A stretch of 32,000 nucleotides of DNA, taken from Candidatus Iainarchaeum sp. Its GTDB lineage: Archaea > Iainarchaeota > Iainarchaeia > Iainarchaeales > JACQJH01. This document shows positions 1 to 31,030 of this stretch, in pieces. A program made the translations under genes and the position numbers. Positions within the stretch are counted from its first letter, which is position 1. Each line of letters begins with the position of its first letter. Where the stretch lies: assembly GCA_016205145.1 (NCBI GenBank), contig JACQJH010000001.1, positions 300,001 through 332,000 on the forward strand, read 5' to 3'. The notes beneath the pieces are model-generated. The model had not been told where the DNA came from and searched no databases. It was given only the letters and a program-made list of their open reading frames with translations.

Positions 1-1116
1 GATGTCCGGTGCGCCCGGAAGCGAGGCGGCAAGCCGGGCATTCGACTGCGCGATTTTGCACACGCGCCTTTTCACCATCGTTGTTATCCTCTGCCGCAGA
101 TCGGACTGGTTGGACTGGCTTGCAGGATAATTGAAATTGTCGTTTGGGTCTGAGGCATTGCACATTCCGCGCTGCTGCATGTCCGGCGTGCACGGCACGG
201 TTATGTTGCCTGTGAAACAGCTGCTGCCCGGAGTGCCCGCAATCCTGTCGGTTTGCGGCGCAGTGAAAGGGTTTGTGCGCCAGTTGCAAACGCTTTCATC
301 GCACATCCCCAATTGAATCTGCTCTATTTCATTGTGCACGCGCGGCGAAAACAATCCGAAATCCGCGCCGGTGTTGTCCTCGCCGTAATCGTGCGCAAAA
401 CTTTTCGCGATTGCTATTGCCCTGAAAATCCTCAGTGGAACGTAAATCTTGAAATTGGTTCTCGGCAAAATCGATTCCTTGCGCACGTTGCCCCTGCCGT
501 CCGACACCACTATTTTTGGAAGGCTTTCGAATTCCGCGTCCGTAAGCCCTGACATGTTGAGGTTCACGTAAAACGTGCCCTGCCCGCAGTCATCCGGGTT
601 TCCGTCAGGGCAGCCGACGACGCTGAAAAAGTTTCCCGCGTTCACGCTGTTCCTCACTGCGGAGGCAAGAACCGGTTTTGTGGAATCCGCGTTGCCTTCC
701 AGGCTTATCGCATATTCCGCGAAAAAGCTTGGAGTAGATTCAAGCAATACCTGCAGATCGTTCGCCATGAAGTCGACAAAGCGCGTGCTTGTCGCGTCGC
801 CGAAATTCGCCCTTGCGAAATCCTGCTGTATTTCCTGCCACGACCTGTCTTCCAGGTTCAAGGTGTAATAGTTTGTAGGCGAGGAAAGCCAGTTTGAAAT
901 CGTCTTGCGCAGAGTGTAATTGAAGGACTGCAGTGCATCCGCCTTCACAAGGTCAGTGACTGCCTTCAGCTCGGCCTGCGTCTGTATGTTGGTTATGTTC
1001 TGCTGCGCGTTCCTTTCGGTTTCAATCATGCTGTTGACGAGCAGCGCCGCCAGGAGGATGAGCATGAATGACAGCAGGGCGGTGAAAAGGTTGAATGCTC
1101 GCTGGTTCAATTGCAA
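1..1116 (-). CDS. Partial CDS (3' end off the left edge): Cys-rich extracellular protein with a type IV pilin-like hydrophobic N-terminus
   Basis: Absent from the supplied ORF track because it runs off the window. I translated the reverse complement codon by codon, and it is open from the in-frame stop at 1144-1146 down to nt 1 (>370 codons). No in-frame ATG lies upstream of or within the hydrophobic N-terminal helix (the first ATGs are Met codons inside and just after it); candidate starts are TTG 1116, TTG 1110 and GTG 1134. The N-terminus reads (L)QLNQRAFNLFTALLSFMLILLAALLVNSMIETERNAQQ, a short polar head followed by a ~20-aa hydrophobic helix. The remainder is polar with at least 8 Cys (GCPDGNPDDCGQG, GMCDESVCNW, SSCFTGNITVPCTPDMQQRGMCN). 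Start codon is uncertain. Confidence 0.55.
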   Translation of the reverse strand, partial: MQLNQRAFNLFTALLSFMLILLAALLVNSMIETERNAQQNITNIQTQAELKAVTDLVKADALQSFNYTLRKTISNWLSSPTNYYTLNLEDRSWQEIQQDFARANFGDATSTRFVDFMANDLQVLLESTPSFFAEYAISLEGNADSTKPVLASAVRNSVNAGNFFSVVGCPDGNPDDCGQGTFYVNLNMSGLTDAEFESLPKIVVSDGRGNVRKESILPRTNFKIYVPLRIFRAIAIAKSFAHDYGEDNTGADFGLFSPRVHNEIEQIQLGMCDESVCNWRTNPFTAPQTDRIAGTPGSSCFTGNITVPCTPDMQQRGMCNASDPNDNFNYPASQSNQSDLRQRITTMVKRRVCKIAQSNARLAASLPGAPDI

Positions 1117-1276
1117 AACCGGAAAGATTAACACAGTTGAAGATTAAAAAGTTTGTCCGCGTTCGCCCGCCGGCCGTTCAGGCGCCGTCGCAGAAGGACT
1201 CTGCCTTGTTTCAACAGGCGGATGAATTCCTGTATGCGCCGGCGCGTTTTTCAATTGCAAACCCGTTTAACGAACC

Positions 1277-1294
1277 GGCGGGCTTCAGCCCGCC
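1277..1294 (-). terminator. Perfect 7-bp stem / 4-nt loop hairpin just after the giant-gene stop codon
   Basis: GGCGGGC-TTCA-GCCCGCC sits 5 nt downstream (minus sense) of the stop at 1300-1302. No long oligo-T follows directly; a T5 occurs near 1146-1150 in minus sense. Terminator function is therefore tentative. Confidence 0.3.
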
Positions 1295-1299
1295 GTAAT

Positions 1300-4200
1300 T
1301 CAGCATTTGAAAGTGCACTTGTAACTGTTCGCGCCGTCCCTGGTGTAAAGGTGCAGGCCGTTTCCCAAATCGCGCGGAAACCCCGTCGGCTCGGAAACCA
1401 ACCTGTTTGTTGAAGTGCAGCCGTGCCCGATGATGTTCCCTTCGGCAATGTTGTATTTTGCGGCAAGGCCCTGCACGAGCTGTTTCACTGCCTGCTGCTG
1501 TGCCGGGGGATAGGAATCAGAGCCGTTGCCCATGTTGACTATTTCTATTCCTATTGACCTTCCGTTCACGCAGTTTGCGTGCCAAGCCTTCTTGTCTTCG
1601 GGAATCACTTCGACTATTTCGCCCTGCTTTCCGACAATGTAATGCGAGCTTGCCTGGTGGGAGTCGGCCCACCAGCTTAACGCGCCGGAAATGTTCCCGC
1701 CCGCGGTGTGATGCAGGACTATAGTGTCAATCCGCGTGCCGTTCCTTGAACTCGAATTCGACTGCACTGATTTTGCCTGGCTTGCGGAAACAAAGTTTGT
1801 CATGGGAACGGTTTTGACATTGCCACTCAGTTCAGCTGAAGTTTTTTTTTTATCCGCAGGCTCCTGCATTGCGCCCTGCTGGCTCCGCCATTTTGCGACG
1901 TCGGCTTTCACGTTGCGGATGTATGCCCCGGTGTCGTTTTCGCTTGACGGCGCATAAATTGGCAGTATGTCGTCAACGGTTGTTTTGCCCTGCGGGAAAT
2001 AATGCTTTGAGGTTTTGATGTAAGCGAACCACGCCTCTATTCCGCCCTGCCATGAATTCCATCCGCAAAAGGCTCCGCTCATGAAATCGTATTTGATTGT
2101 GCTTTGCGGGCATTTTATGTTTCCGACGCTTTTTGTTTTATTTGCGACCCCGAATTTTCCGTATGTTGATTCCTGCTTGAAGAACGCAAGCGCGATTGCG
2201 TTGTCAATGCCGTACTGCTGGCCGTATTGCACGAAATATTTTCCTGTTCCTGCTGCGGGAGAGCCTGCGCTTGCAAGGATTTGGTCCACGAATTCGGCTG
2301 AAAGGCACGGCCTCTCGCTCAGCATTGAAAGTTTTTCGCCCTGCTTGGGCGGGGCGCAGCCGCCGGTTGCAACATTCGCGGTTCCGCCCTGGCCTGCGCC
2401 CGCACCTGCAGCGCTTTCAGCGGCCACAACGCTGTAGCGTTTCCATTCCTGGTATTTTTCGACAACCCATTTTGCCAGCGGGGAAGAGTTTTTCGGGTCA
2501 AGGGTTTTGGCGAATTCAGCCAAAGCATTTTCCGTGCTCCCCGTCTGGGTTTTGAGCTGTGCAAGCAACTGCGCTGTTTGCAGTATTGATTCCGGCGCGA
2601 GGATTTTTTCGCGCTGCTGCGAAGCCTGGCTTTGCGCCTGGCCTGCGGCAAGAGTAATTGTTCCGGTGACAGGGGTTTTCGTTTCCGCTTTTTCCTGCGT
2701 TTTCTCAGCCTCCGCCGCGTCAACGCCTTTCGCCTTCATTTCCGCAAGCACTGCAGCCATTATCGCAGCTTCTTCCACTTCGGTCTGGTCGGAAGCTGAT
2801 GCAATTGCTTTCTGCGCTTCCGGGTCATAATAAATTTTCATTTCCTGCGGGTCTGCGCCCGCTTCAACCGTCGGCAGCAATGAGCCGAAAACCGTGCTCA
2901 GGGTCCTTTGCGCGAATTCTCCTTTGCAGTCCGAGTCAAGGCGCTTTGCCTTTCCGCTTTTCAGCTCTTCCTGCATCTGGCTGAACTGCTCTGCGCCCTG
3001 AACTTCAACTATCGTCGTTGTTGCACCGCTGCCGCCATCGCCTTTCGCTGTCTTGACAATCCTGTAAGTGTGGTTTTTCTTGAGAATCACTTCAAGGCTG
3101 TCGCCCAACACTTTGCCTGTTTCGGGGTCGATTTCCTTTGCCCCGCCGTTTATTTCATCAATGCCCTTGTCCGGCGCCTTGAACATGTTTTTCATCCACT
3201 GGTCATAGCCTTCCATGCCGGCTGCAACCGAGAGCACGCTACAGCCAAGGCCTTTCGCCAGATCCCAGAACCGTTTCCTGCTGAAAGTGTCCCTCAAATT
3301 GCGCTTGAGCGCGTCAAGCCTGCCGAGTTTTGCGGCGTCGTCCAATGCAGAGGTGGCGCTTCCGCTTAGCGTGGATTCGGTAATCTGCCTGAGCGCAGCA
3401 TCGTCGAACAACGCGCCCCTCACAACCTGCCTGTCAAGGCTGTCAGCGCTTGAACCCAAAATTCTTCTCATTTCATCCTGCGACAAAGCCGCCTTTATCC
3501 TGAAAGCGCCGCCATCCCATTCTGGCGCTGTTGCAGTGCTGCTGAACGCGGTTTCAAGCCTTCTGCTTATCTGCTCCCTGAGCGGTGCCCTGAGCCCGTC
3601 GATTTTTGCGGCCTGCTCTACTGAAACGCTGTTTTTCAATTGCGCCATCACGTCATCCGTGAGTTCGTCGGCGAACGCGCCAACCCTGCCGCCGATTTTG
3701 ATGTTGTTGCCTGCAGTTTCAATCAATTGGTCCATTTCAGCTGCGCTTACAATCCTTGAAGTTCCGCTGCCTGCGGCGGTTTCAATCAATGGCCTGCCGC
3801 TTGTGGCGTCGATTCCTGTTATCAGTCTTCCATCCCTTGTCACTTGCCCGACCGGGTCCCATTCCAGGCCGGTTGCCTTGAAATTGAATTCAGCAGGCAA
3901 TGCAGTGTCGCCAACGGCTTTCTGCAATGGCGCTCTTGCAGACGCGTCGATCTGGTCCAACAGGTTTGTTCTCAGGGCCGGAGTTCCGCGCAAGCTTCTG
4001 AGTTGCGGGTCCCTCAGGAGGGTCGTGCCAACCTCGCTCAGGAGTGTGTCAGAGCCCTGCAAAGCGTTCTTGGCCGCAGTGTCGATTGATATTTTGGGGT
4101 CGAGCCTGTGCGCTTCCAGAATCCTTTTTTCCATTGCGCCCTTGAAAGTGCCTTTGAACTGCGCAAAGCCGCGGTTCTCGCTTTTTGCGACAAGCGCGTC

Positions 4201-7200
4201 AGCCCATCTTGCCGAAACAATGTCTGCCTGCTGTTCGAAGCTTAGGGTTTCAAGTCCCCTTGTAAGCGTTCTCACCGTGGCGCCGCCAACCGCCGCGTCA
4301 AGCAGCGCGTCCCTGTTGTCCTGGCTCTGCGGAGTGTCGAGGAATGAAAGCTGGTCCGCGCTTATTCCCTGCAAGTCCTTGCCTCCAAACCATGTTTTGA
4401 GTCCGTCAAACTGCCTTTGCATGAACGCCTTTGCGTCCTCGCCTTTTTCAAACGTGTCCGCTGCGGCAATCGACGCGGGCAAAACGCAGTTCAGGCCCAC
4501 ATCCCACAATGCGCCCACACCCGCCTTTGTCATCCCGCCGCAAATCGCTGCCGCTACACTGCACGGTGCCAGGAACCCTGCTTCAATCGCCTTTCTTTTT
4601 TCCGCATTCAATTGTTCCTTGTAGGTTTTCTGCTTGTCCAATGCCGGCCCGCCGGGAGTGCTGATTGCCTTGTTTGCCGCATCCAATGCCTTCTGCCTTG
4701 CCAAAGCCTTTGCCACATCCGCCAGGCTCACTGTTTCCGGCTGGCCTTTCCATCCGACCGTTGCATAATACGTGCCCGGCTCCATGCCGACAATTTTTTT
4801 GAGCAGGTCTTCCGGATGGATTCCGCAAACGCTGAATTTTACGTTGAAGGAATTGCTTTCAAGCAGTCCTTCGGAAACCCATTCGGATGGCTTTTTGTCC
4901 GCGCTTGCTCCGGATGCAGTGCCTCCCTGTGATCCGGAATTGTTTCCTGTTGCCTGCTGTGCTGATTGCGTTGAGCCGGATTCCTGCGTTTGTGCATTTG
5001 CCGTGCCATAACTGCCCGGGGCCTGCAGCCTTGCGATTGAAACAGTTGCAACCGCCTCATTCAGTGGCTGTGCGTTTGCCGTGGACGCGCCAGCCCTTTT
5101 TATCTGAACGCTTTTCGCCTTCACGTTCACATAAGGCGAGGTGGTCTGCGCCGCCAAAACAAACTGGTCGTTGCCGGAAACGCATAATTTGAAATCGTAT
5201 TTGTAGTTGCCGGTTTTCGCGTCCTTCGCGAGTTCGATTGTCTGGGTTGAAGGGATTTCTTTTCCGTCGGCCGAGCGCAATTGCACTGAATCTATTCCTG
5301 TTTTGTCCTCGTGCGTTTCCCAGTCCTGCGACAGGCGCACTTTCTGCGGGACTTCCGCCACAACCTTCAATTGCGCGCAGTTTTCGCCCACGTAAAGCGT
5401 TACGTTCTCGTCGCCCTCTATTTTGAGGCTTCCGACCTGTGAAAAGCTTTTTATGAGCAGATAGCTTTCGTCCTTTGAAATGCAGCCGTCAACCTGGTGC
5501 TGTGTGAGTTCGGCGATTGCCTTTGCCGCTTCCGATGCGATGTTTCCGGAAGTCGAAAGCGCAGTGCCTTGCGTCTGCTCCGCGGGCTGTGTTGCATTGC
5601 CCGCGTTCTGCGCCTGCGCCTTTGCAACGAAAACAGTGCCCGTCATTCCGGGATGCAAGGTGCACTTGTAATCGAATTTGCCTTCCTCGGTGAAAGTGTG
5701 CGATGTCGCCTCGTTTGCCTTGAGTTTCACGTTGAAGCCGATGGACTCGATTGTAACTGTGTGCTCGACAGTGTCGTTGTTCACCCATTCAACGGTCTGT
5801 CCGGGCTGGATGTTGACTGTTGACGGGCTGAACTTCAAGTCCTTTATGTTGATTGTGATGTCTGCTGCGGGCAGCTGTCCCTGCGTTGCATTGCCCGGCG
5901 CCTGTCCCGCGGGCGGGGCAGCTGCAGGGGTTTGCGTTTGCGTGGGCTGCGTTGGCGCAGTCGTGCCTGTTTGCGTTCCGCCTGGCGCCTGCAGCATTGC
6001 AGTTCCATTGCCCTGCCAGTTCAATGATTGCGATTTTGCGGTTGCGGGCTGCTGTGCATTCTGGCCTGGCGGCGTTGCCGGAACATTCGTGCTGCCGGTT
6101 TTCTGGCTTTCCGCTTTCTTTTTTTCAGAATAAACTTTCGGGATCGTCGCGAACACTGTTTTCGGTTCGTCTGATTTTTCGGTTTTTTCTATTTCAAGCT
6201 TGACCAGGCTGCCGTTGGTTTCTCCGGCCTTGATGACAATCTTGTTTCCGCCTGCCGTGCGCGCAACCCTCTGCTCCGAACCGAAAAGGCTTTGCGAAAA
6301 GCTTTTCCCGATTTCTTCAAGGCCTTCTTCCGGCTGGACCATGCCGGGCCAGGAGCCGAAGCTTTGGCTTTGCGAATAGCTTTTGTCTATCGGCAAAAAG
6401 TTGGAAACGTTCTGCACGGCATTCAGGCATTCGCCTGTCACTTTCCTTTCGCTTTCATGCCTGACAAGCAGTACAAAGCTGTCCTTGATGATCTGGCCGT
6501 TCTTGACCTGCACCGCGCCTTTCACGGAAAGCAGGTATCTGCCGCAGCCTTTGAGCGGCTTTGACATGATTACCTGTTTTGTGAGGCCGGTCGCGGCAAT
6601 GTCCGATATTTCCTGTTCGCTTGTTTCGCCGGCCTGGATCTTGTAGCCTTTCAGTTCGGAAATGTTTTCGGTTTTGACTGCGTTTTCAATGCCTGCGCTT
6701 GTGACAAAGTCGTTCTGCAGGAAAACCGGGAACGGAGTCGAGGCAACGTTCATGTTCGAAAACGTGCAGTAATCCTTTCCCTGCCCGCAGCCCGCAAAGC
6801 TTTTCGCATCCGCTGATGATGCTGAAATCCTTTCCTGCGCCTGCTTCACAGCATCCTGCATTTTTTTCGCCAAAAACTTTGCAGCTGTTTCAGCGTCGCA
6901 GTAGCCCTCGGAACAGTTGTCCTGCGAAAGCAGCGGGAATGAAACCTTTGCCGTGCCATCAGCGTCGCAGTAAGGCAGTTCTATTTCGGATGTCTTGACT
7001 CCCGCGCCTTCAACAGCTTTTTCCCCGAGGCTGATCCTGAAGGGAAGGGCATTGCTTTCCATGAACTTCTGGCTTCGGATGAGCAGGCCGATTGCCTTTA
7101 TGCTGCCGGTTTCGTTTGAATAATCCTGTTTTTTCTGCAGCAACAGCTGGAATTTAGCTTCCGAATTCGGCGCCAGTATGGGGGTTGCAAGCGGGCTCAG

Positions 7201-11699: not shown

Positions 11700-12230
11700 T
11701 TATCGCCGCAGGAATTGGCATTTTATTTTTCCCGTCGCCCACAAAAACCACAAAGCGTAGAATCCGGCGATGACAACAAACAATGTCAGCCTGAACAGGA
11801 CGTTGTGCGTGAATTCAACCAGCTGCAAATCCCCGCCAGCGGAAATCACTGCAACCGTTATTGCAATGCGCGCGATGTTGAAAGCGAATGCGACTGCAAC
11901 CCCCACAAATGCGCCCGCAACTCTTTTCTTCCACGAAATGCCCCAGGAAGAAAGAATTGCAGCCACAATAATCAGGGTTTCGGTTTTGCCCGTGCAAAGT
12001 TCTGAAATCTGCGCGACAACGCCGTTCGAAAACTGCATCAGCACCGGTTCCTGCAAAACGATTTTTCCTGAAAAGCCGAAAAGAGAAAGCACGAGCATCA
12101 CGGCATTCGCCACAAGCGCTTCGATTGCCTGCAACGGCAGCAGGATGCCCGACAAAAACAGGATTGCAATGTACGCGGCCGCGAAAGTCAGGACGAACCT
12201 TCCGGCTTTTTTCGCTTCTTCAACATCCAA
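11700..12230 (-). CDS. Small (176 aa) exosortase/archaeosortase-family transpeptidase-like membrane protein
   Basis: Polytopic hydrophobic protein carrying the family's three signature residues in order: Cys79 in ISELCTGKTETL (the CSG/CTG motif), Arg121 in AFNIARIA (the N-x-x-R-I motif), and His142 in EFTHNVLF. There is no ATG near the 5' end; the first canonical start is TTG at 12228-12230, with an upstream in-frame stop about 40 nt away. Confidence 0.8.
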   Translation of the reverse strand: MDVEEAKKAGRFVLTFAAAYIAILFLSGILLPLQAIEALVANAVMLVLSLFGFSGKIVLQEPVLMQFSNGVVAQISELCTGKTETLIIVAAILSSWGISWKKRVAGAFVGVAVAFAFNIARIAITVAVISAGGDLQLVEFTHNVLFRLTLFVVIAGFYALWFLWATGKIKCQFLRR

Positions 12231-14725: not shown

Positions 14726-14748
14726 GGCAGTCAACAACACACTTTTTT

Positions 14749-14758
14749 GGTTAAAAAA
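14749..14758 (-). promoter_or_regulatory. TATA-like element for the 821-aa hydrolase gene (leaderless geometry)
   Basis: Minus-sense TTTTTTAACC is centred ~28 nt upstream of ATG 14725. This matches archaeal TATA-to-TSS spacing for a leaderless mRNA. It is a motif match only. Confidence 0.4.
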
Positions 14759-14887: not shown

Positions 14888-14937
14888 AAGAAACCAGTTT
14901 TATCTACCTGGCAGCTTTTGTCTGGCGGTGTTGGCTT

Positions 14938-19537: not shown

Positions 19538-19969
19538 ATGGACGAGCGCGGGCAGTATTTTGAGGGCTTCCGGCTTATAGTGGAAGCGGTAATGGCGCTG
19601 GCAATCCTTGCGATAATTGTCGGGGCAATATCCTATTTCGAGCAATTGCGGATTGACGTCAGCATCAGCCAGATTGAACAGGGCTTTTTCGACTCGTTCG
19701 AGGCATCGGACGGCAGTGTCATAAAAAAATCCGGCCTGGAGATTCCGCAGATGGAGCTTTCCTCGGTTTATTTTGCAAAACAGGTCAACCTCGGCCAGGA
19801 ATGCATTGAATTCGATTCATCCGGCATTTCGAATTATTCCGTTTTTCCCGGCAGGCACGGCATAAAAATAAATTCTCTGACAAAAGCCGACGTTTTCTTC
19901 AAATGCCAGCGCGACACCCTGGGCTGTGACAGCCATTGCACGATCAGCTTCGGCAAAAAGCTTTCCTAG
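19538..19969 (+). CDS. Type IV pilin-like protein (class III signal peptide), 143 aa
   Basis: MDERG|QYFEGFRLIVEAVMALAILAIIVGAI has a short basic head, G-Q, then a ~22-aa hydrophobic helix. GGTGA lies 5 nt upstream of the ATG, which is 12 nt after the platform gene stop. There are 5 Cys in the C-terminal half. Confidence 0.75.
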   Translation: MDERGQYFEGFRLIVEAVMALAILAIIVGAISYFEQLRIDVSISQIEQGFFDSFEASDGSVIKKSGLEIPQMELSSVYFAKQVNLGQECIEFDSSGISNYSVFPGRHGIKINSLTKADVFFKCQRDTLGCDSHCTISFGKKLS

Positions 19970-20081: not shown

Positions 20082-20645
20082 ATGAACGAAAAAGGCCAGG
20101 CCTTTGACACTTTTAAGCTGCTGATTGCGGCAATCGTTGCAATCGCAATCCTTACAATTCTTTTCCAGATTTTCGGCCTGATTCCGACCAATCTCCTGCA
20201 GTCGAATCCGACCGAGGCCGCGGCCGACAAGCTCAAGACCGCGACGAACAAGCTTGCCTTGGCGCAGACGACCAAGGACGTTGTTTTTGACAGGACGAAC
20301 AACGAGTTCTCGAACAGGCCGATTTCCAAGGTTTCAGGCGTGCCGATCGGGCCGGAACAGATTTGCGTGTTGAGGGGCTATTTTGCCGACAACCCGGAAT
20401 TTGAATTTATATCGGAAGGCCAATCCATTAGCTACAAGGGCAACAGCCCCAAGCCCGCCAAGATAACGGTTTTGTGCGACAGCGGCGCGGGCGAGCTTGC
20501 AAGCGATTTGGAACAGCAGCCACTGCTTGCGGCGGATGTCGAGAAGGACGGCGGCCTTGCTACCTGCGGCAGCCTGCCTGCCTGCACCGAGTCAAGCACT
20601 GAAACCTGCTGCATCATTGTTCTGAGAAGCGGAGGCGGCGCGTAA
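20082..20645 (+). CDS. Type IV pilin-like protein (class III signal peptide), 187 aa; candidate major pilin
   Basis: From ATG 20082 (M15 of the track ORF): MNEKG|QAFDTFKLLIAAIVAIAILTILFQIF, a textbook archaeal prepilin N-terminus. GGTG lies 12 nt upstream. The gene is bracketed by oligo-T tracts (19987-19992 upstream, four tracts downstream). The tail is Cys-rich (...CGSLPACTESSTETCCIIV). Confidence 0.8.
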   Translation: MNEKGQAFDTFKLLIAAIVAIAILTILFQIFGLIPTNLLQSNPTEAAADKLKTATNKLALAQTTKDVVFDRTNNEFSNRPISKVSGVPIGPEQICVLRGYFADNPEFEFISEGQSISYKGNSPKPAKITVLCDSGAGELASDLEQQPLLAADVEKDGGLATCGSLPACTESSTETCCIIVLRSGGGA

Positions 20646-20956: not shown

Positions 20957-21529
20957 ATGGACAGCAGAGGCCAGGAATCCGCGCCTTTCGAGTTGCTTGT
21001 TGCGGTCATTGTCATGGGCTTTGTCATCGCCATCGGCTACCAGGCCTTGGGCATTCTGAACAACCAGCTTTGCGAGGGCAAAATCGAGGCTTCCCTGAAC
21101 AATTTCCGGTCAAAGCTTGAAATCGCAGTGACGCAGAAAACCCCGCAGGAATTCTCATTCGAACTGCCATGCTACAACAAGGCGAAAAGCTCGGTGAAAA
21201 TTCAGGAGTGGCGCGATGCGAAGATTTGCGCGAACGAGTGCCAGCGCTCGTCCGACGCGTGCACTTTGCTGACTTACACTTATTCGGGCAGCGAGAACCC
21301 GGATTTTTCCGTGCGCACCTGCCTTGAAATTCCCATCACGACCAGTTTTCCTTCACAGGAAAACTGCGGCACCGGAAGCAAGTGCGACTGCAGGGATGCT
21401 CCGGACCAGGGGGGATTCATTTTGCAGAACTTTTCAATCGCGGTTCCGGACGGGAAATACCAGCTTGTGAACAAGACCGACGTGCAGGACCCGAATCCGA
21501 CTGTCTGCGCGTACTGGAAGGGGCGTTGA
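20957..21529 (+). CDS. Type IV pilin-like protein (class III signal peptide), 190 aa, very Cys-rich
   Basis: From ATG 20957 (M35 of the track ORF): MDSRG|QESAPFELLVAVIVMGFVIAIGYQALG. There are ~11 Cys in the globular part (KICANECQRSSDACTLL, ENCGTGSKCDCRD). Confidence 0.8.
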   Translation: MDSRGQESAPFELLVAVIVMGFVIAIGYQALGILNNQLCEGKIEASLNNFRSKLEIAVTQKTPQEFSFELPCYNKAKSSVKIQEWRDAKICANECQRSSDACTLLTYTYSGSENPDFSVRTCLEIPITTSFPSQENCGTGSKCDCRDAPDQGGFILQNFSIAVPDGKYQLVNKTDVQDPNPTVCAYWKGR

Positions 21530-21573: not shown

Positions 21574-22215
21574 ATGCTCGGCTTTTCCTTGAGCAAACTG
21601 AACCTGCTGATCTTGGTTGTGGCGCTGTTCGCGATTGTTTCCTATTTCTATCTGGGCCTTTCCGACATTCTCGTGGCGGACAAGGCAAGGCAGGTTGCGG
21701 ACAAGTATTACGGCGAAATCCTGAACAGGGCGCAAACCGATTCCCTGTGCAATTCCAAGACCGGGATAATTTTTCCGCGCTCAATCAGCGTGTCCGGCGG
21801 CGACAGGTTTTACGTGGCGCAGATTTCAAAGTTCGAGCCCGCGGATCCGGACAAGCTGGATTCCGTGGTTTTCAAGGTCGTGAACAGGAAGGACCGGAAA
21901 CTGGTGTATGCCGCGAAATCCTTTGACGTCAACGCGACAATCCGGCTTTTCAGCTGGGACCCGAAGACAAGCACGGTTACCGAGGAACCGCCTGACGGCA
22001 TGATTTCAATCGACCCGCAGTCGGCTCCAAGGCCCGTCGACGGCATGAACGTTGTCAAGGAAACTTTCCAGGGCCAGAATTTCGTTTACGTCATTGCATG
22101 CTCGTCGGTTTCCGGGATTTGCGAGCTTAACTCCGGCATTGTCGGCTGCAAGGTCAAGGCGGAGCGCGGCATTGCGTCAAGCTGCATTGCGCCGGCCGAC
22201 CCGTGCCCGGCATGA
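21574..22215 (+). CDS. Pilin-like / pseudopilin-like membrane-anchored protein, 213 aa
   Basis: MLG|FSLSKLNLLILVVALFAIVSYFYLGL has a very short head with G-F-S-L, then a hydrophobic helix. A strong SD GGAGGTG at 21560-21566 lies 7 nt upstream of the ATG. There are 7 Cys. Confidence 0.7.
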   Translation: MLGFSLSKLNLLILVVALFAIVSYFYLGLSDILVADKARQVADKYYGEILNRAQTDSLCNSKTGIIFPRSISVSGGDRFYVAQISKFEPADPDKLDSVVFKVVNRKDRKLVYAAKSFDVNATIRLFSWDPKTSTVTEEPPDGMISIDPQSAPRPVDGMNVVKETFQGQNFVYVIACSSVSGICELNSGIVGCKVKAERGIASSCIAPADPCPA

Positions 22216-22227: not shown

Positions 22228-22788
22228 ATGCACAGGATTTTTTCGCAGTCAGGGTTTCTTGGCCCGATCGGCGACGATTTGCCCAGCTTAATCCCGCTCA
22301 TTGTTTCGCTTATGGTTTTCTTTTCGACTTTTTCGTTTTCATTCAACGCTTTCGATTCGAAAAAGGAAAGCTTTGATGCCGCGGTTTCCATTCTGCGGGT
22401 TTCAGGCGCTTTGAGGGGCAACTCGTATTTTTCGGGCCTTGCCGACTTCAAGGCGAAATGCTCGCAGATTTCGGACCGGCGCTTCAACTTTGTCGCAGGC
22501 CTGATGGAACTGCCTGAAAACCCTTTCGATCCAGCCGATCCGGCGCATTTCAGGGGCGTGGACATCGCAGATCTCGGCGGAGGCTTTTACAATACGCCTT
22601 CCGACACGGAAAAATTCGAGTGCTCGAACGTCCTGGATCCGGCATCCGATTATCCGGACATTCACAGCAGGGATTTGATTGTGAGGCTTTTTCCGGTCGC
22701 ATTGGAGCTTAACGCGGACGACGGCATTCAAAGCGGCTTTGCAATAAAGCCAATGGTCCTGGTGGTGGCAGTATGGCGCCCCGGCTAG
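22228..22788 (+). CDS. Pilus-operon membrane-anchored protein of unknown function, 186 aa
   Basis: MHRIFSQSGFLGPIGDDLPSLIPLIVSLMVFFSTFSF has one N-terminal hydrophobic helix. The gene starts 12 nt after the preceding stop and overlaps the next gene by 16 nt. I recognise no family motif. Confidence 0.6.
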   Translation: MHRIFSQSGFLGPIGDDLPSLIPLIVSLMVFFSTFSFSFNAFDSKKESFDAAVSILRVSGALRGNSYFSGLADFKAKCSQISDRRFNFVAGLMELPENPFDPADPAHFRGVDIADLGGGFYNTPSDTEKFECSNVLDPASDYPDIHSRDLIVRLFPVALELNADDGIQSGFAIKPMVLVVAVWRPG

Positions 22789-23534
22789 GCGAGAAAGGCC
22801 AGGCTTCACTGACCGACTCGATGTTTTTTCTCATAATCGTTTCGGCTTTGTCGGTTTTCCTTTTTTCGTTTTCGGTTTCCTATGGCATGGGCGTAAGCCA
22901 GCAGCTTGTCCGCGAGTACAGGTCCGAGTTTGCGGCTTCCGCCATGAAATCCATTCTTTATTCGAGCGTTCCGAGGCAGGCATCCGACAGGCTTGAAAAC
23001 GCTTCCGAAGTCGACTATCTTCTTGCGGCAATCAAGGAGGATTACGCGGATGACCAGCTTCTGGACCTGACAAGGGAGACGATTGCAAGGCGCGTGGTTT
23101 CCGTAATGGAACCGTTGTCGGATTCGTTCGACTACGTTTTTTTCATTTACCTTCCTTCAACCACTTCGCCTTCAGGCAGGTTTCCGTTTGTGCTGTTTTA
23201 CCACAACGATTTTTCCTTTCCGGCCGGGCGAAGATCCACTGATGCAGGCAATCCCATTGTGGTTTCTTCGGGCAGGGCCTATTTCTGCGACCCGGTTTCA
23301 AAGGACGTCATAACGAACAGGCTTCTGCCTGCGGTGGGCGACGTGGCTTTCGCAAGCAACAGGCTTGAGCTTTTCTCCAACAACGCCGCCGGCCCGAATC
23401 AAAAGGTTTTGGCTGAAATCGGCCTGGCAATGTGGCCGACAACCGTTCTGCCGGAAAGCGTCTGGGACCCGGCCAACAATCCAGGCAACCTGAACTGCGA
23501 TTTGGCGGCCCCGATGGAAGTGCGCACGGGCTGA
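22773..23534 (+). CDS. Type IV pilin-like protein (class III signal peptide), 253 aa
   Basis: MAPRLGEKG|QASLTDSMFFLIIVSALSVFLFSFSV. The 16-nt overlap with the upstream gene suggests translational coupling. Confidence 0.75.
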   Translation: MAPRLGEKGQASLTDSMFFLIIVSALSVFLFSFSVSYGMGVSQQLVREYRSEFAASAMKSILYSSVPRQASDRLENASEVDYLLAAIKEDYADDQLLDLTRETIARRVVSVMEPLSDSFDYVFFIYLPSTTSPSGRFPFVLFYHNDFSFPAGRRSTDAGNPIVVSSGRAYFCDPVSKDVITNRLLPAVGDVAFASNRLELFSNNAAGPNQKVLAEIGLAMWPTTVLPESVWDPANNPGNLNCDLAAPMEVRTG

Positions 23535-23584: not shown

Positions 23585-25825
23585 TTACGCGCGCGCCCTG
23601 ACTTCGGTTCCGCATTGCGGGCAAGTGTATTTGACCATTCCGTCCGGCTGCTTTTCCATTTTTTTCGCGCAGTGCGGGCAGTAGGCTGTTCCACACCCGG
23701 AACAGAAGACAAGCTCCTCGGTTTTGCTTTTGCAGTTCGGGCACGTGTTCTTGTCGGTTTCAACGGTTTTCTTGAAGCCAGTGCCCTCGTCAAGCTCTGA
23801 AATCCTAAGCTCTTCGTCTTTTCCGAGGTTCAGCTCGGATAGGTCGAATTCGTCCACGGGCTTTCCTTCATTGCCTTCGATGCCGATGCTTTCACTGCTT
23901 TCGGCTTCGGGAATCTCAAGCACTTCTTCCGCGTCTCCGGACCCGCTTTCATCTTCTTCGGGGAGCTCCGCGTTTTCAGCGCCCTCTTTTTCACTGTCCT
24001 GTTCATCTTCCTCTTTTTGCCGCGTCAATGCCCTCTGCCTTCTTGTCATGAACCCGCCGGATTTTTCTGCGGCAACTGCTTTTCCGGTGATTTGCGCTTC
24101 GCCTTCCTCCGGCTCATTGCGCAGCCTGCTTTTTTCAAGCTGGCTGTAAACGTTTTCGGCTATTTCGTCAAGCTCTTTTCTTGTCGGCTCGCGGTTCGCT
24201 TTCTCCCTGAACCTTTGGATCTGGCTTTTGGCCTCATTTTTGATTATCTGGCTTTCAATGTCGTTTTCGCGCCTGTCCGCCTCGGCCCTGTCTTCGACGC
24301 CCATCTGGCCTTCAAGGTCTTCTTCCATTTCTTTTTCTTCGGGCCCGCTTCCGGAAAAGCGCGCGCCAGCGCCCTGCATTGTTTCATGGCGCCGCCTCAG
24401 CCTTCTTGGAACAAACTCTTCTTTCGCCGTCTGGCCCATGGCGGGTTCCCTGCCTTTTGGCGCCGCCTGTCCGCCTTTAAGCGTTTTCATTGCCTCGATT
24501 ATGCGCCTGATTTCCTCCTTTTTTTCCCTGTCGGAGCGGCTGTCCACGCGGGTTTGAACACTGCCGGAAACAGTTTCAGGCTGTGCGGCTTTTTCCGCGG
24601 TCTGTGATTCCGATGGCTTTCCGAAGAATAATCCGAAAAGCGGTTTGCCCTGCCTTTCATCCCTTGCCTGTTCCCTGGTTGCTGACCTGTCCGCGGTTTG
24701 AAGTGCGGGTGCAGCTTTTGACTGTGTTTCTTTTGCCTGTGCCGCTTTCTCCTGCCCGGCCTTTTCCGCTTCCGTTTTTTTGCGCTCCTCAAGCCTTGCC
24801 TTGACGCTTTCCTGCCGGGGCTCTGCGATAATTTTTTTAAGCGCTGACAATTCCTTTTGCGGTTCTCCCCCGCCAAGTTTTGCGGCAGGCTTTCCGCCGT
24901 CCTTCGGCTTCAGCTTTTCCCATTCCCTGTCCAGCGCCTTCACGTCCACTTTTTGTTCAGGCTTGCCCGTGCCGAACAGGAAAGGCTTTTTCTGTTCGGC
25001 TTTCCGCTCTTCGGCTTTAGCGGTTTCCGGCTGCTCAGGCTTTTCGGTTTCAATTTTTTCCCGTGCCGGCGCTTCAACCATTGCAGGCTTCGGCTTTTTT
25101 GCGAACACCGCGGAAATGCTTTTGCGCAGGCTGTCAGCGAGGCTTTCCCCGCCGGTTTCCTTCTGCTTCGCGCCCTGGACTTCCGCGGGCTGTGCGGCAA
25201 GGATTTTTTCCCTTGCAACCTGGCTCGCGCTCTTCGCCGAACGCCCGGCGGGTGCGCGTTGAGGGGTATCGCTGACGCTCAACCCCTCTGCCTGCACTGC
25301 TGCAGCTGTCAGAGTTGTGTTTGCTGTTGGCATTTGCGTTTTCAGCGTCCCGGTTTTTTCCTGCGGCTTTGCCTTCAGCATTTTTTCCGCGGCAATGCTT
25401 TGCACGGCTTTTTCCTCGCGCTCTTTTTTCTTGTCAAGGAACCGCTCAAGCCTTGACCTCTTCTCCTCGGTCAAAGGCGAGGCGATGAGTTCCGAGCCGA
25501 ACGCCTTTTTTGTCACGACAACGTCGACTTTTTTCGGCCCGACGACTTTTCTGCGCAATGAAAGGAATGCGTGCGTTCCGATTGCCGCGGCTGCAAGCAC
25601 CGGAATGAAAGTTTCTTTCGCACCGGCGAATTCCGCGGCAAAGGAGACTGCCGAGACCGCTATTGAAAAGCCCGCGCCTATGAGAACGGCCCATCCGACC
25701 TTGTAGCTTGTGTCGATGCTCCTCACTTTTGGCCAGCCGGAGCGCAGGAAAAGGTAGCCTATGGAAGCGGAACCGGCAAAAGCGTAAGCAGGCAGGATTC
25801 CGAGGATTTCCATCTGCACGGCCAT
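23585..25825 (-). CDS. Membrane protein (3 N-terminal TM helices) with a ~550-aa K/E/A/Q-rich low-complexity region and a C-terminal double zinc ribbon
   Basis: The N-terminus MAVQMEILGILPAYAFAGSASIGYLFL...VGWAVLIGAGFSIAVSAVSFAA...IPVLAAAAIGTHAFLSL is hydrophobic. The middle is highly charged (EKAGQEKAAQAKETQSKAA..., EEDEQDSEKEGAENAELPEEDE). The C-terminus has four CxxC pairs: CPNC...CSGC...CPHC...CPQC (23588-23749). Confidence 0.8.
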   Translation of the reverse strand: MAVQMEILGILPAYAFAGSASIGYLFLRSGWPKVRSIDTSYKVGWAVLIGAGFSIAVSAVSFAAEFAGAKETFIPVLAAAAIGTHAFLSLRRKVVGPKKVDVVVTKKAFGSELIASPLTEEKRSRLERFLDKKKEREEKAVQSIAAEKMLKAKPQEKTGTLKTQMPTANTTLTAAAVQAEGLSVSDTPQRAPAGRSAKSASQVAREKILAAQPAEVQGAKQKETGGESLADSLRKSISAVFAKKPKPAMVEAPAREKIETEKPEQPETAKAEERKAEQKKPFLFGTGKPEQKVDVKALDREWEKLKPKDGGKPAAKLGGGEPQKELSALKKIIAEPRQESVKARLEERKKTEAEKAGQEKAAQAKETQSKAAPALQTADRSATREQARDERQGKPLFGLFFGKPSESQTAEKAAQPETVSGSVQTRVDSRSDREKKEEIRRIIEAMKTLKGGQAAPKGREPAMGQTAKEEFVPRRLRRRHETMQGAGARFSGSGPEEKEMEEDLEGQMGVEDRAEADRRENDIESQIIKNEAKSQIQRFREKANREPTRKELDEIAENVYSQLEKSRLRNEPEEGEAQITGKAVAAEKSGGFMTRRQRALTRQKEEDEQDSEKEGAENAELPEEDESGSGDAEEVLEIPEAESSESIGIEGNEGKPVDEFDLSELNLGKDEELRISELDEGTGFKKTVETDKNTCPNCKSKTEELVFCSGCGTAYCPHCAKKMEKQPDGMVKYTCPQCGTEVRARA

Positions 25826-25888: not shown

Positions 25889-26419
25889 ATGGCACAATCC
25901 CTTCTTGATTCAATCGTTTTTCCATCAATTTCCCTTCTCGTGCAGGTACTTTTATTGTCGGTCCCGGTTTTTTTTCTAGCGCTTTTTTCGGGCATGATTT
26001 CCTCGAAGCTTTCAAAAAAATTCAGGTTCAACTGGCTCCAGTCGACAGTGGTTTCGACATATTTAGTTGTTTTCCTCTTAATATTCTTTTTGTATTTGTT
26101 CCCGGTTTTTTCCGTTGCTCCCGATGTCAGGGCGGGAACGCCGCCCGAAGGCCTCCGGTTGTCATTCATGGAGCAGGCTTTCCAGTGGATTGTAATCTTC
26201 GCCGGCCTGCTTTTCAAGGCAATTGTCTTCTCGGTACTGCTCCTGCCGCTCGAATTTGTCGCCGCCCTGATTTTTGATTATTCGTCGAAACGCATTTCAA
26301 AGACGGCCTGGTTCAGCGTCTTTGTTTCGGTTTATGCAACCACTCTTTTCGGCTTTCTCGTGCTGCTGTTCAATCCATGGCTCGCAGAGGGCCTCATTTT
26401 TTTGCTTTATTGGGGGTAA
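25889..26419 (+). CDS. Polytopic (about 5 TM) membrane protein of unknown function, ~176 aa
   Basis: Very hydrophobic: SISLLVQVLLLSVPVFFLALFSG, VVSTYLVVFLLIFFLYLFPVF, WIVIFAGLLFKAIVFSVLLLPLEFVAALIF, WFSVFVSVYATTLFGFLVLLF. I prefer ATG 25889 over the TTG 25877 used by the track. The stop lies 9 nt before the next gene, and a GGGGG SD-like run overlaps its 3' end. Confidence 0.7.
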   Translation: MAQSLLDSIVFPSISLLVQVLLLSVPVFFLALFSGMISSKLSKKFRFNWLQSTVVSTYLVVFLLIFFLYLFPVFSVAPDVRAGTPPEGLRLSFMEQAFQWIVIFAGLLFKAIVFSVLLLPLEFVAALIFDYSSKRISKTAWFSVFVSVYATTLFGFLVLLFNPWLAEGLIFLLYWG

Positions 26420-29400: not shown

Positions 29401-31030
29401 GGAAACCGCCAGCTCGGAACAGCTTTCAACCGACAAGGTCAGTGAAATGATTGATTCGGGAACAAAGCAGGTTCTCGGTTCGCTGTCAAACAATCCTGAT
29501 TCCCTGCTCGGCAAGCAGGCCGAGGAGCTCAAGGGAAAGATAGAAGACCTTGTCGGAAACGCGGCCAAAAACGATTTTGTCGAAGCGATTGTGGGCATGG
29601 ATGGAAGCTCTTCCGGAAAACTGTCGGGAAAAAAACTGTTTTATTTCTGGTTCAAGGGCATTTTGTCGCCGGCAAAGTACAAGACCGATGGCAGGCGCGT
29701 CATAGTCGACCCCAAGACAGGCACGACTCTTGACATAGACTTTGCGAACGGCCGGATTTCCGTCAACGGCCAGCCCACCGTGACAAATCCGGACATAGTG
29801 CGGCTTGCAACCACGAACTCCGAAGTTCCGGCAGAGGAGATTCCGCACACCATAACAAAGGTTTCTTTGCCGGACTCGAATGCCGTGATGTTTGAAATGG
29901 GCCTCAACTCGGACACCGTTGTTTTGGACCAGGCAGTGCTGAACTGCATCAAGGCAGGCGTTCTGGAGCAGACGGGCGTCGGGCTTTCTTCGAACAACCT
30001 TTCCGAGGTTTTCGGCAAAACGCTTGCGATTGCAACCGACTCGCATCCGAACATTCACGCCGACGCATCCGCCAAGCAGATAATTGCCGAGGGCACGCCC
30101 AGGCAGATTGTCAGCGGCCAGAATGCGAAAGCTGGCATTCTCGGCAACCGCGAAACCATTTTGAGGGGCGATTCCGAAAAGAGAGTCGGCCTGCTTGAAT
30201 CAATTCAATTTGAGAATGGCGTAATCATTGTGAAGCCTGAAACAAAGCAGTTGATTGTCTGGCTGAGGCACAACGAAAAAGCCGTTCTTGACCAGAAGGA
30301 CGTCAGCGGTTTGAAGGCGAAATTGGAAAGCGTGAAGAATCCTTTGACGAGCTGTTCCGAGCCTGCAATAAGCCTTGAGGCACTGCCGACGCAGGGCTCC
30401 GACTTAGCGGCCTTCAAGACCCAGCAGTTCAACCAGTCCATTCAGAAGCTCGGGCCGTTCCAGGTCTTTGACACCGACAAAAAGCGGTTCATTCTTTACT
30501 CCAAGCTTGAGGGTGGCAAATGCGTTGACTATTTCAAGGTAATTGACAAGGCAACGGGCGAGGTCTATGAGTCGCCCATATCTTCGATTACGCAGACGCC
30601 GGACGGCGTGCAGATACAGACTGCGGACGGCCAGACGCACTCACTCGGCTTTTCCGCGGAAAACGGCATTCCGAAAGTTACGTTTGACGGCGGCGCGCCG
30701 GAAACCCTGCTTTCCGCGACAGGCAAGAACGGCTCGTTCTATTACAATCCGGACAAGGGCTTGTGGTATCCTGAAAACGGCCAGTTCATTCCGTTGAGCG
30801 ACGCGTTCAGGCAGCAGGGCGTTACGACTCAGGCCAATCCCGACGGCACGGTTTCAAGCCAGCCCGGCGGAAACGTAATGAACCTGAACATAGGCGACAA
30901 GGGTTCGGGCACGCCCTTCAACCTGCCCTCATTGCCGGAATCCGCGGCAATGCAGTTTGCATTCATTGCATTGCTGCTGCTGTCATTCCTTTTCGTGCAG
31001 GCGCGTTTTTCGCGTCGCACCGGACCATAA
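26429..31030 (+). CDS. 1,533-aa secreted surface protein without recognisable domains; N-terminal signal peptide and C-terminal tripartite sorting signal
   Basis: Signal peptide MRRHFADRIFSLFAVFLMLGANFSFAAA|QPQ. It is a long mixed alpha/beta polar protein, and I could not match any family motif by eye. The C-terminal signal is described in the next feature. Confidence 0.85.
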   Translation: MRRHFADRIFSLFAVFLMLGANFSFAAAQPQPAGAQANAPGSIGSAGNASTPNLAPTTQAQFACSSESISPQELQKLMDATTNNGFEGKELSSGTGAKKDRGELDQNTLVLPTGEGSNAVRRNVPSQEISPDETAHLLNSFVAGPFAFGLVLSDTLRVGRCKDQDSNENCALQGKNLAYRNSGAGIKEDFRNVWDDFKTIFVEKPAEISNDEYDALRANFAQSTGISPEQLNQLQDAQDANKAVSNEDKSLLAGVSDGVKSLKYRFFKREPLDVIPNSILSDSFTASTQTNCDNAACIISSYSFFDKMYNSWFSSQLVVSNFGPSLFGVARNMMNWTMTRNWPWNIEDSKLLQKIRTKFLDLEFLPTQLKAGAMQQRAYAHGLDDLWVPMMENKGGWDGGYYLLKGQSFRSWAKQIFDPKDGAYYKLSPTQKSEFGKIVRDLKSYAKRKEAIWNAAEEEYTTIAKAAGVGTQAEIQARIEFGKTSARLMQNDDEFLNLDVPEWWTRDSMAGLYDVAVKENFSGHYQMLNKDSKNIDMIQKAFMDKGDWSSFAGSGLNTYEVSKLADGRSALQFYRVGPKGQATEAHVEDLEKNLPLFHDKMVVNDKGENLILTETTLPYIKETSTGTVKVYDAGWEKAEAISPEDFAGKLLHPRVKSRTISLFNKNADQLYQSLMEQGFVDRRYFSLLDKYITNEKNVLQEYFSVKGGAKWTLYPFGYWQAKRGFGFEGLSAYQLPDSWSSIIVYHGDEKIFDDAYIDFFSNEGSDQGDIFVQVLNKLPIKIILNEVSDKYNPVKKLYDAVTGNTLRGKVEDIAIYSSTPPECPGCGVSLNSEKLETFSPAFTVTKKFDAYILENPQSNAAKEKGTTLVSYAHHANLKGKSSEIEGGAIDLVKAMQEKKTCSDAIKEGALGWTAGWVGGIGKEKSASRVGAVLALEESAAYAIFSFWGAGEAGIIASLVQQTVLAPKLADCVDSEEGYYIHFTVPKKEEQKETASSEQLSTDKVSEMIDSGTKQVLGSLSNNPDSLLGKQAEELKGKIEDLVGNAAKNDFVEAIVGMDGSSSGKLSGKKLFYFWFKGILSPAKYKTDGRRVIVDPKTGTTLDIDFANGRISVNGQPTVTNPDIVRLATTNSEVPAEEIPHTITKVSLPDSNAVMFEMGLNSDTVVLDQAVLNCIKAGVLEQTGVGLSSNNLSEVFGKTLAIATDSHPNIHADASAKQIIAEGTPRQIVSGQNAKAGILGNRETILRGDSEKRVGLLESIQFENGVIIVKPETKQLIVWLRHNEKAVLDQKDVSGLKAKLESVKNPLTSCSEPAISLEALPTQGSDLAAFKTQQFNQSIQKLGPFQVFDTDKKRFILYSKLEGGKCVDYFKVIDKATGEVYESPISSITQTPDGVQIQTADGQTHSLGFSAENGIPKVTFDGGAPETLLSATGKNGSFYYNPDKGLWYPENGQFIPLSDAFRQQGVTTQANPDGTVSSQPGGNVMNLNIGDKGSGTPFNLPSLPESAAMQFAFIALLLLSFLFVQARFSRRTGP
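30923..31027 (+). other. C-terminal sorting-signal-like tail: short motif + hydrophobic helix + basic cluster
   Basis: LPSLPES-AAMQFAFIALLLLSFLFVQA-RFSRRTGP* has the same tripartite architecture as PEP-CTERM / PGF-CTERM / LPXTG signals. The exact motif class is not one I can name. Confidence 0.6.

Follow-up and report, generated by a model that had tools for sequence, protein, structure and literature searches.

Bonds between N-acetylglucosamine (GlcNAc) and N-acetylmuramic acid (MurNAc), and between MurNAc and L-Ala, occur in bacterial peptidoglycan (murein) and not in archaeal envelopes. Here we analyse a stretch of 32,000 nucleotides from Candidatus Iainarchaeum sp. (assembly GCA_016205145.1, contig JACQJH010000001.1, positions 300,001 to 332,000; hereafter the window), in which a giant surface protein of 3,444 amino acids (aa) bears predicted murein-cleaving domains at its tip and shares a locus with a type IV pilus-like machine and with a second, secreted GH73 protein of 803 aa (Table 1). 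Murein hydrolases have been described in archaea: a survey of 3,706 archaeal genomes placed them in about 5% of the genomes, and two enzymes of Halogranum salarium, Woldo (M23) and Danwoldo (GH73), kill bacteria (PMC12352652). The window resembles these archaeal peptidoglycan hydrolases (PGHs) in that a murein-free archaeon possesses exported murein hydrolases, Danwoldo likewise belonging to PF01832, in that more than one PGH per genome occurs, and in that PGHs are prominent among DPANN archaea (PMC12352652). The described enzymes, however, are small soluble proteins secreted through Tat or Sec and equipped with PG_binding_1, whereas the window has its cassette on the tip of an anchored giant in a pilus locus. 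Because the survey was confined to enzymes in which a domain for wall binding could be recognised, the window hydrolases would have been missed; neither has the catalytic plus wall-binding architecture by which modular archaeal PGHs were defined (PMC12352652).

Two further DPANN systems are comparable. SPEARE proteins of Nanohaloarchaeota are giant, membrane-anchored and enzyme-bearing, and have been proposed as tools for breaching the host (PMC6642349). Like the giant studied here they run to several thousand residues, are mostly extracellular and combine adhesion with enzymatic or toxin-like domains, their proposed task is the breaching of a partner cell, and their genomes also hold FlaI/FlaJ/pilin-type genes. 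They show no detected sequence relationship to the giant, however, and carry protease, toxin and restriction-enzyme domains in connection with an archaeal host, whereas the giant is anchored at its N-terminus and carries murein-specific enzymes (PMC6642349). In Woesearchaeota, genes for GH23 lytic murein transglycosylases have been taken to indicate a ‘vampiristic’ or predatory way of life among DPANN (PMC9723730). This is likewise a genomic inference of a DPANN attack on bacterial walls, and one orthologue of the giant (locus L068) has an SLT/GH23 domain; the lineage and the enzyme families are different, however, and neither a surface-protein fusion nor a pilus linkage was reported. Among bacterial proteins, staphylococcal AtlA/AtlE also unite the bond specificities of an amidase and a GH73 glucosaminidase in one polypeptide, and the model of the giant's cassette matches the structures of AtlE glucosaminidase and of the AmiA/AmiE amidases. 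The giant differs in having GH73 before the amidase, the reverse of the staphylococcal order, and in lacking R repeats, and since its host is an archaeon the role of the cassette cannot be autolysis or cell separation. CdiA-type polymorphic toxins share with the giant a long conserved stalk and an exchangeable C-terminal effector that differs between strains, but there is no known homology; they use two-partner secretion where the giant has an N-terminal transmembrane (TM) helix, they deliver intracellular toxins rather than wall hydrolases, and no immunity gene is evident for the giant.

In the open-access literature we found no paper on the present Iainarchaeota locus, on the giant family or on its hydrolase-tipped variants. 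The claim of the initial annotation of this DNA that nothing comparable has been described is thus right in part only, as archaeal murein hydrolases (PMC12352652), vampiristic DPANN (PMC9723730) and SPEARE proteins (PMC6642349) have all been published. What is new is the modular tip of a conserved giant linked to a pilus, a tip that has been directed at murein repeatedly; archaeal murein hydrolases, DPANN giants and type IV pili were already known.

A conserved surface locus and its predicted murein hydrolases

The best explanation as a whole, which we consider probable, is that the window is ordinary Iainarchaeota (Diapherotrites, DPANN) chromosome with a conserved cell-surface locus of the lineage, to which enzymes predicted to cut bacterial walls have been added. 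The additions in the window are a GH73+Amidase_2 cassette beyond the normal C-terminus of the giant and the 803-aa GH73 gene in a variable slot. The presence of two predicted wall-cutting enzymes in such a locus suggests physical attack or feeding on bacteria.

To define the locus, we used the ATPase as an anchor to scan one genome per GTDB species, which returned 54 archaeal loci and one distant bacterial match, and ran each window protein by tblastn against the 54 loci. In 51 archaeal loci the ATPase is 59-72% identical over full-length matches, and the remaining three have 52%. All ATPase-anchored loci but one are titled archaeal, many of them Iainarchaeum, including the reference single-cell genome of Ca. 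Iainarchaeum andersonii. About 60 Iainarchaeota loci share a backbone of the same gene order: a pilin-like gene, the giant and a short exosortase gene face the ATPase, the platform and six pilin-like genes (p1-p6), beyond which lie a zinc-ribbon protein, a TM protein and a 1,533-aa surface protein. The sortase is upstream of the ATPase and divergent from it in 38 of 54 loci (36 of 39 when only loci extending 1.5 kb or more upstream are counted). Of the 24 loci that reach 7 kb or more upstream, 17 have the giant next to the sortase, and in one more it was moved across by an inversion (18/24); the 10-kb flanks of the loci usually end before the 3' end of the giant gene. Where the downstream flank suffices, the platform is present in 35 of 39 loci, p1-p6 form an ordered block in 17-21 of 23, and the zinc-ribbon protein follows p6 in 12 of 23; the TM protein is detectable in six loci and the 1,533-aa protein in three. 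A metagenome scan seeded on the N-terminus of the giant added loci with the same order, in which the pilin-like gene cut by the left edge of the window always comes after the giant. Because this gene lies directly downstream of the giant in at least eight loci (L015, L067, L068, L071, L074, L080, L082 and L086), the conserved block reaches past the left end of the window.

The backbone is therefore no island but a locus conserved throughout the lineage. The initial annotation had proposed a dedicated cell-wall-breaching island and had left its gene order to comparison with related genomes. The order is indeed retained across Iainarchaeota genome and metagenome loci, but the dedicated island has to be given up, because the lineage-wide backbone of pilus, giant, sortase and 1,533-aa protein occurs nearly always without a murein hydrolase. 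The proposed functional unit survives in part: the pilus arm, the sortase, the giant and the 1,533-aa protein are conserved, but the murein hydrolases do not belong to the shared unit. As the unit is found nearly everywhere without them, its core job should be more general, most plausibly surface attachment.

The archaeal nature of the contig, also assumed in the initial annotation, is well founded. NCBI lists the 803-aa protein, on a 612,963-bp contig, as a protein with a glucosaminidase domain from a metagenome-assembled genome of a Candidatus Diapherotrites archaeon, Diapherotrites being now Candidatus Iainarchaeota within the DPANN kingdom Nanobdellati. The source samples are SRR12113383-5, and independent (Logan) assemblies from three sequencing runs span the pilin/Zn-ribbon/TM/1,533-aa/riboflavin junctions, and the ATPase/GH73/sortase junctions are spanned as well. 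G+C is even along the window, at 0.51-0.55 in each gene, the hydrolase portions included. Together with the loci of archaeal relatives, these results exclude a misassembled, bacterial or chimeric contig for practical purposes; the uniform G+C likewise gives no compositional signal of recent horizontal transfer.

Murein-directed tips of the giant

The giant consists, from its N-terminus, of a conserved module of about 60 aa, a TM helix, an Ig-like/CarboxypepD_reg ectodomain, a helical region and the enzyme cassette. Its only TM helix is N-terminal (aa 48-66) and it has no C-terminal anchor, which puts the cassette at the distal end. Across the lineage the protein measures ~2,600-3,400 aa. Orthologues with 23-40% identity were found in 23 genome loci, among 21 database proteins and in about 10 metagenome loci; an exact database look-up of the 3,444-aa protein gave no match, a 1,077-aa fragment (P0002) alone being on record. 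Other orthologues stop at or just past a conserved ‘W..DC’ point, usually with a shared helical domain of about 150 aa containing conserved Cys pairs, and this common tip is the C-terminus of most of them. The present giant keeps the helical domain, beyond which a Gly/Ala linker leads to GH73 and Amidase_2.

We compared full-length giants from the protein database (21), genome loci L015 and L036, and five metagenome loci, together with P0121 and P0006. Among these approximately 31 proteins, a GH73-like domain is present in three, two of which also have Amidase_2: the window protein, P0121 (the L021 orthologue, with GH73 alone) and the distant P0006 (GH73+Amidase_2). A fourth orthologue, L068, has a Pfam-significant SLT domain at its tip (50.7 bits), and no murein-directed domain was found in L036, L080 and about 25 other giants. 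The occurrence of murein-directed domains of three kinds at the tip of four orthologues that are not mutually closest is the strongest argument for a functional link between giant and murein. A bolder reading, possible but tentative, is that the family represents a conserved, pilus-linked ‘reach-out’ giant with a modular tip socket that has repeatedly captured GH73, GH73+Amidase_2 and SLT domains. If this were true, Archaea would have their first candidate for a contact-dependent device that breaches cell walls, and some members of a supposedly free-living DPANN phylum would have bacterial, not archaeal, partners or prey.

The common helical tip was also considered as an SLT/GH23 domain itself. 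Its similarity to GH23/SLT is weak and not significant (hhalign probability 24%), its top Foldseek matches (g-type lysozyme, Slt and MltF) all have E>1, a profile search of the PDB was negative, and no catalytic Glu is obvious. We therefore leave this assignment as a lead.

The GH73 and Amidase_2 domains

The tethered GH73+Amidase_2 protein of the initial annotation is confirmed by several lines of evidence. The Amidase_2 (PF01510) match at aa 3299-3405 is strong (E = 1.7e-28; 100 bits against a Pfam gathering threshold, GA, of 26), whereas the Glucosaminidase/GH73 (PF01832) match at aa 3132-3214 scores 19.3 bits and that of the 803-aa protein 26.4 bits, both below the GA of 30.2. The two GH73 domains are 48.6% identical. 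A HMMER search with the 353-aa cassette collected 6,709 relatives, and GH73 relatives at 40-55% identity (P0003, P0007, P0008 and P0009) exceed the GA with 33-46 bits, so the window proteins belong to GH73 by transitivity only. The candidate catalytic Glu of the giant is E3155 in ‘FKQESTYG’, and a ‘YAPSSEND..Y’ motif is also present. In a 36-sequence family alignment this Glu (E64 of the alignment; ‘FKYESTWG’ in the 803-aa protein) is invariant, as is the YA..D..Y motif, both window copies included, and the family profile places the invariant Glu on the catalytic ‘ALESNWG’ of pneumococcal LytB.

The cassette as modelled by AlphaFold has a mean pLDDT (predicted local distance difference test) of 78.7, with values above 90 through most of the GH73 half. 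In Foldseek it matches murein enzymes of both families with E-values of about 1e-5 to 1e-6, namely LytB 7pj3 (8.8e-6), AtlE 4pi9/4pi7 and Ecd09610 8yxk on the GH73 side, and AmiD 3d2z (3.9e-6), AmpDh2 (4.1e-6) and AmpD on the Amidase_2 side. By sequence the amidase likewise matches AmpDh2, AmpD and AmiD, and its nearest named relatives are murein amidases of Myxococcota. It keeps both His zinc ligands (H3308 and H3404) and an AmpD-type catalytic Glu (E3364, at the position of AmpD E116). From these profiles and models we accept the GH73 and Amidase_2 assignments of the cassette as predicted folds, and regard the amidase active site as unproven.

The entire cassette also occurs on P0007 and P0008, proteins unrelated to the giant, and small GH73-like relatives of the P0156 type lie in an integrase/primase element and are uninformative on the origin of the domain. 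P0005, the nearest relative of the amidase (51% identity), lies in L061 (region 652-6161). This contig, with its Alba gene and a phosphoglycerate mutase of archaeal type, looks archaeal, and two genes downstream of P0005 it encodes a Peptidase_M23 protein of 1,163 aa; L061 is possibly another archaeal murein-hydrolase cluster.

The secreted GH73 protein and its slot

The 803-aa protein has a Sec-type signal peptide and no anchor. A GH73-like domain (aa ~49-205) is followed by about 600 beta-rich aa without assignment and a weak FN3-like end, so that in its description as a secreted GH73-FN3 protein the secretion and the GH73 domain are borne out, and FN3 corresponds to one weak match (3mpc, E 0.007, last ~80 aa). 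A full-length database search returned only the protein itself, and the gene is unmatched in all 54 related genome loci by tblastn. The gap between sortase and ATPase in which it lies ranges from 99 bp to 8 kb in relatives and holds DUF7544 membrane proteins, PPDK, a MutY-like glycosylase, PIN/MazF toxins (toxin-antitoxin) or YadA-, laminin-G- or Ig-type adhesins; among 49 slot open reading frames (ORFs) of relatives, none of the 25 families listed is a murein-hydrolase family.

Proposed role and alternative explanations

Under the explanation that we favour, pili would carry the archaeon to a bacterial surface, and the giant, rooted in the archaeal membrane, would extend and offer its tip enzymes to the murein. 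These would locally cleave GlcNAc-MurNAc glycan bonds and MurNAc-L-Ala stem-peptide bonds, opening the wall at the site of attachment, and the free 803-aa enzyme would contribute diffusible glycan cleavage. The outcome may be contact or anchoring, feeding or killing, among which the sequence does not discriminate.

Several observations weigh against such a role. Giants with a recognisable hydrolase make up just about 10% of the orthologues, which means that the core function of the locus is something other than wall cutting. The slot of the 803-aa gene acts like a hot spot for insertions whose cargo is unrelated, and the position of the gene may therefore be fortuitous. In the amidase, the third zinc ligand is ambiguous (E3415 or D3422), there is a 6-residue insertion after the second His, the canonical catalytic Lys is replaced, and the model gives the third-ligand loop a pLDDT <50. 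At the tip of L068, the SLT domain apparently has Gly where the catalytic Glu is expected. No recognised cell-wall-binding domain (LysM, PG_binding_1, SH3 etc.) was found in either hydrolase at E<=0.01. Finally, Ca. Iainarchaeum andersonii has been read as possibly free-living, with autonomous growth (PMC6642349, citing Youssef et al.).

Alternatively, the enzymes might serve to kill distant competitors or to harvest the murein of dead bacteria, with no mechanistic tie to the pilus and a location that is coincidental. Archaea are on record as secreting murein hydrolases that kill bacteria (PMC12352652), hydrolases are missing from most loci with the same pilus, and the Sec-secreted, unanchored 803-aa protein comes from a slot that varies between relatives; for this enzyme a diffusible weapon or scavenging tool is plausible. 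It is less so for the fused cassette, which is covalently attached to a membrane-anchored giant and cannot diffuse unless cleaved off, and chance insertion is hard to credit for three kinds of murein-directed domain at one tip in four orthologues. For the locus as a whole we consider this explanation unlikely. A role in adhesion only, with tip domains that are catalytically impaired murein-binding lectins (comparable to non-catalytic peptidoglycan recognition proteins) and that give the giant adhesin specificity for bacterial surfaces, would account for the non-canonical placement of the third zinc ligand and catalytic Lys of the amidase, for the L068 tip without its Glu, and for the resemblance of the common helical tip to a degenerate lysozyme-type fold without Glu. 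The invariant Glu and YA..D..Y motif of both window GH73 copies argue otherwise, the amidase retains both His ligands and the AmpD-type Glu, and its variant motif is shared by P0005, which suggests a conserved functional variant over decay; the chance that adhesion is all is therefore rather small. As to the possibility, raised in the initial annotation, that the hydrolase domains are catalytically dead, folds and GH73 Glu are intact, and the third zinc ligand of the amidase is ambiguous.

The substrate might also be other than murein, such as envelope glycans of the archaeon itself or of an archaeal host, pseudomurein, or chitin-like GlcNAc polymers. GH73-fold enzymes recognise GlcNAc-containing glycans, the window hydrolases have no cell-wall-binding domain to narrow the target, and to our knowledge the DPANN hosts established in culture so far are all archaea. 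Amidase_2 enzymes, in contrast, act specifically on the MurNAc-L-Ala lactyl amide, a bond absent from archaeal envelopes, the closest named relatives of the amidase are the murein enzymes of Myxococcota, and all structural neighbours of the cassette act on murein, which makes a non-murein substrate very improbable.

Against the background of the archaeal DPANN hosts seen in culture, murein hydrolases, which have no substrate in an archaeal cell, are a rare pointer at the sequence level to a bacterial partner. If the enzymes of this surface locus are active, they would provide a testable handle on archaeon-bacterium contact in a single protein whose catalytic residues and locus are defined, and the type of giant tip would be a marker for sorting Iainarchaeota genomes by likely lifestyle. 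Archaeal antibacterial enzymes, so far small secreted proteins, would then also include proteins tethered to the surface, a type that current surveys of domain architecture overlook.

Other features of the locus

Table 1. Features of the window (coordinates relative to its first nucleotide; aa, amino acids; TM, transmembrane).
Feature	Position	Strand	Basis or remark
Left-edge pilin-like gene, 5' part only, >378 aa	<1-1134	-	N-terminal hydrophobic helix, 8 Cys
Giant surface protein, 3,444 aa	1300-11634	-	ORF, Pfam, hydropathy, orthologues
Amidase_2 (N-acetylmuramoyl-L-alanine amidase/PGRP fold) of giant, predicted, aa ~3299-3422	1369-1740	-	Pfam, structure
GH73-like N-acetylglucosaminidase domain of giant, predicted, aa ~3105-3253	1876-2322	-	Pfam, family profile, model
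All-helical common tip domain of giant, aa ~2930-3080	2395-2847	-	Orthologue alignment A7
Cupredoxin (blue-copper) domain of giant, aa 1923-2003	5626-5868	-	Pfam Cupredoxin_1 2.5e-10; amicyanin model
N-terminal module and TM helix of giant, aa 1-68	11431-11634	-	EDKxYGxLDxL..KGIPVY..LE..GIPxFPFT
Exosortase/archaeosortase-family protein, 176 aa, ~5 TM	11700-12230	-	TIGR04178
Secreted GH73 protein, 803 aa	12314-14725 (ORF 12314-14779)	-	Likeliest start ATG at 14725
Divergent spacer, 212 bp	14726-14937	.	TATA-like box TTTATAAATATAAGAAAC at 14877-14894, ATPase side
Type IV pilus/FlaI-like assembly ATPase, 760 aa	14938-17220	+	T2SSE; TTG start conserved as ‘MKIGG’
Polytopic T2SSF/PilC-like platform, ~770-800 aa	17120-19525	+	Start uncertain; conservation from ~aa 40-50
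Pilin-like p1	19538-19969	+	K/R-G-Q class III signal
Pilin-like p2	20082-20645	+	K/R-G-Q class III signal
Pilin-like p3	20957-21529	+	K/R-G-Q class III signal
Pilin-like p4	21574-22215	+	N-terminal hydrophobic helix; signal atypical
Pilin-like p5	22228-22788	+	N-terminal hydrophobic helix; signal atypical
Pilin-like p6	22773-23534	+	K/R-G-Q class III signal
Membrane protein, 746 aa, C-terminal double CxxC zinc ribbon	23585-25825	-	ORF, hydropathy, conservation
TM protein, 176 aa, 4-5 TM helices, no Cys	25889-26419	+	Logan gene call; pairs with 1,533-aa gene
Secreted protein, 1,533 aa	26429-31030	+	Signal peptide; C-terminal signal 30905-31027
CTP-dependent riboflavin kinase	31081-31473	+	Housekeeping
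Archaeal riboflavin synthase	31493-31987	+	Housekeeping

The archaeosortase-family gene annotated between the two hydrolase genes is supported by TIGR04178 (38 bits against a cut-off of 23), and its C79, R121 and H142 (Cys-Arg-His) are invariant among 39 orthologues. The 1,533-aa protein has a C-terminal signal composed of ‘FNLPSLPES’ (FNLPSLPE(S/D)), a TM helix and the basic tail RFSRR. It was initially taken for an orphan with a sorting signal; the signal holds, but orthologues exist in L007, L009 and L015, that of L007 being 41% identical over the full length and ending alike in ‘FNLPSLPE’, TM and basic signal. As in the archaeosortase systems ArtA/PGF-CTERM, pacearchaeosortase and XrtX, a Cys/Arg/His protein is thus encoded near a protein with motif, TM helix and basic tail; unlike in those systems, the sortase is below the cut-off of every named subtype (score/cut-off XrtX 41/170, pacearchaeosortase 21/80, ArtD 18/125), and the ‘PSLPE’ signal matches no NCBIfam CTERM model. 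Because neither hydrolase carries a C-terminal sorting signal, the sortase gene is not there to anchor the hydrolases, and the conserved PE-type signal, judged from its sequence, makes the 1,533-aa protein probably the substrate that the exosortase serves. In relatives, large secreted proteins in the variable slot (L045 6108-8351, minus strand; L010 5849-9889, plus strand) also end in motif, TM helix and basic tail, for example ‘VPET’-TM-RQKKR in L045, which fits a sorting signal of PE type that the short exosortase next to them would use. The Logan assemblies call the gene of the 176-aa TM protein next to the 1,533-aa gene rather than an overlapping minus-strand ORF. This protein was rejected as a second sortase, as it has no Cys, no family match and no similarity to the sortase.

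Within the giant, the cupredoxin domain has a complete type-1 copper site with all four ligands (H1958, C1991, H1994 and M1997) and is bounded on each side by Q/T/P-rich linkers. No match to it occurs in the 54 related genome loci, although in some of these the flank ends before that segment of the giant. It places a redox-active copper domain on an extracellular stalk. The N-terminal module of about 60 residues, with the TM helix, is also found on otherwise unrelated large metagenome surface proteins, L087 (1,532 aa), L088 (1,282 aa, with a dockerin) and L094 (>3,370 aa), and may be a membrane-anchor or targeting signal shared by a family of DPANN surface proteins.

The pilus arm agrees with its first description as a type IV pilus-like machine with ATPase, platform and pilin-like genes, six of the latter following the platform and a seventh lying at the left edge. 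As in archaeal type IV pili, there are a FlaI/PilB-like ATPase, a PilC-like platform and class III signal peptides; unlike in these, no prepilin peptidase (PibD/EppA type) is encoded within the window. The ATPase scores 65.6 bits with T2SSE (GA 24.9) and has a Walker A motif, GSRGSGKT, at aa 465, and because its score with the FlaI model (146 bits) is far below the cut-off of 550, the system is of the pilus type and not an archaellum. The platform scores 26.4 bits with T2SSF (GA 25.2). Each of p1-p6 has one N-terminal hydrophobic helix, with a canonical K/R-G-Q class III signal in four of the six, and none matches Pfam or a pilin model; the left-edge gene, which runs off the window, has an atypical signal. 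The 746-aa protein after p6 combines N-terminal TM helices with an E/A/K-rich middle of about 590 residues.

The length of 212 bp given initially for the spacer between the hydrolase and pilus arms is exact. The TATA-like TTTATAAATATAAGAAAC sits in it upstream of the ATPase start, and a related box, aGTATAATAATAAGaa, is found upstream of the ATPase start in many orthologous loci (among them L010, L015, L016, L024, L029, L042, L046, L053 and L056), mostly at ~40-60 nt and further away in some. From its sequence, the box is a candidate for a lineage-typical Iainarchaeota promoter element. A search with Rfam gave no RNA family in the window. At the far right, the housekeeping archaeal riboflavin genes reported at the outset are confirmed as a CTP-dependent riboflavin kinase and an archaeal riboflavin synthase.

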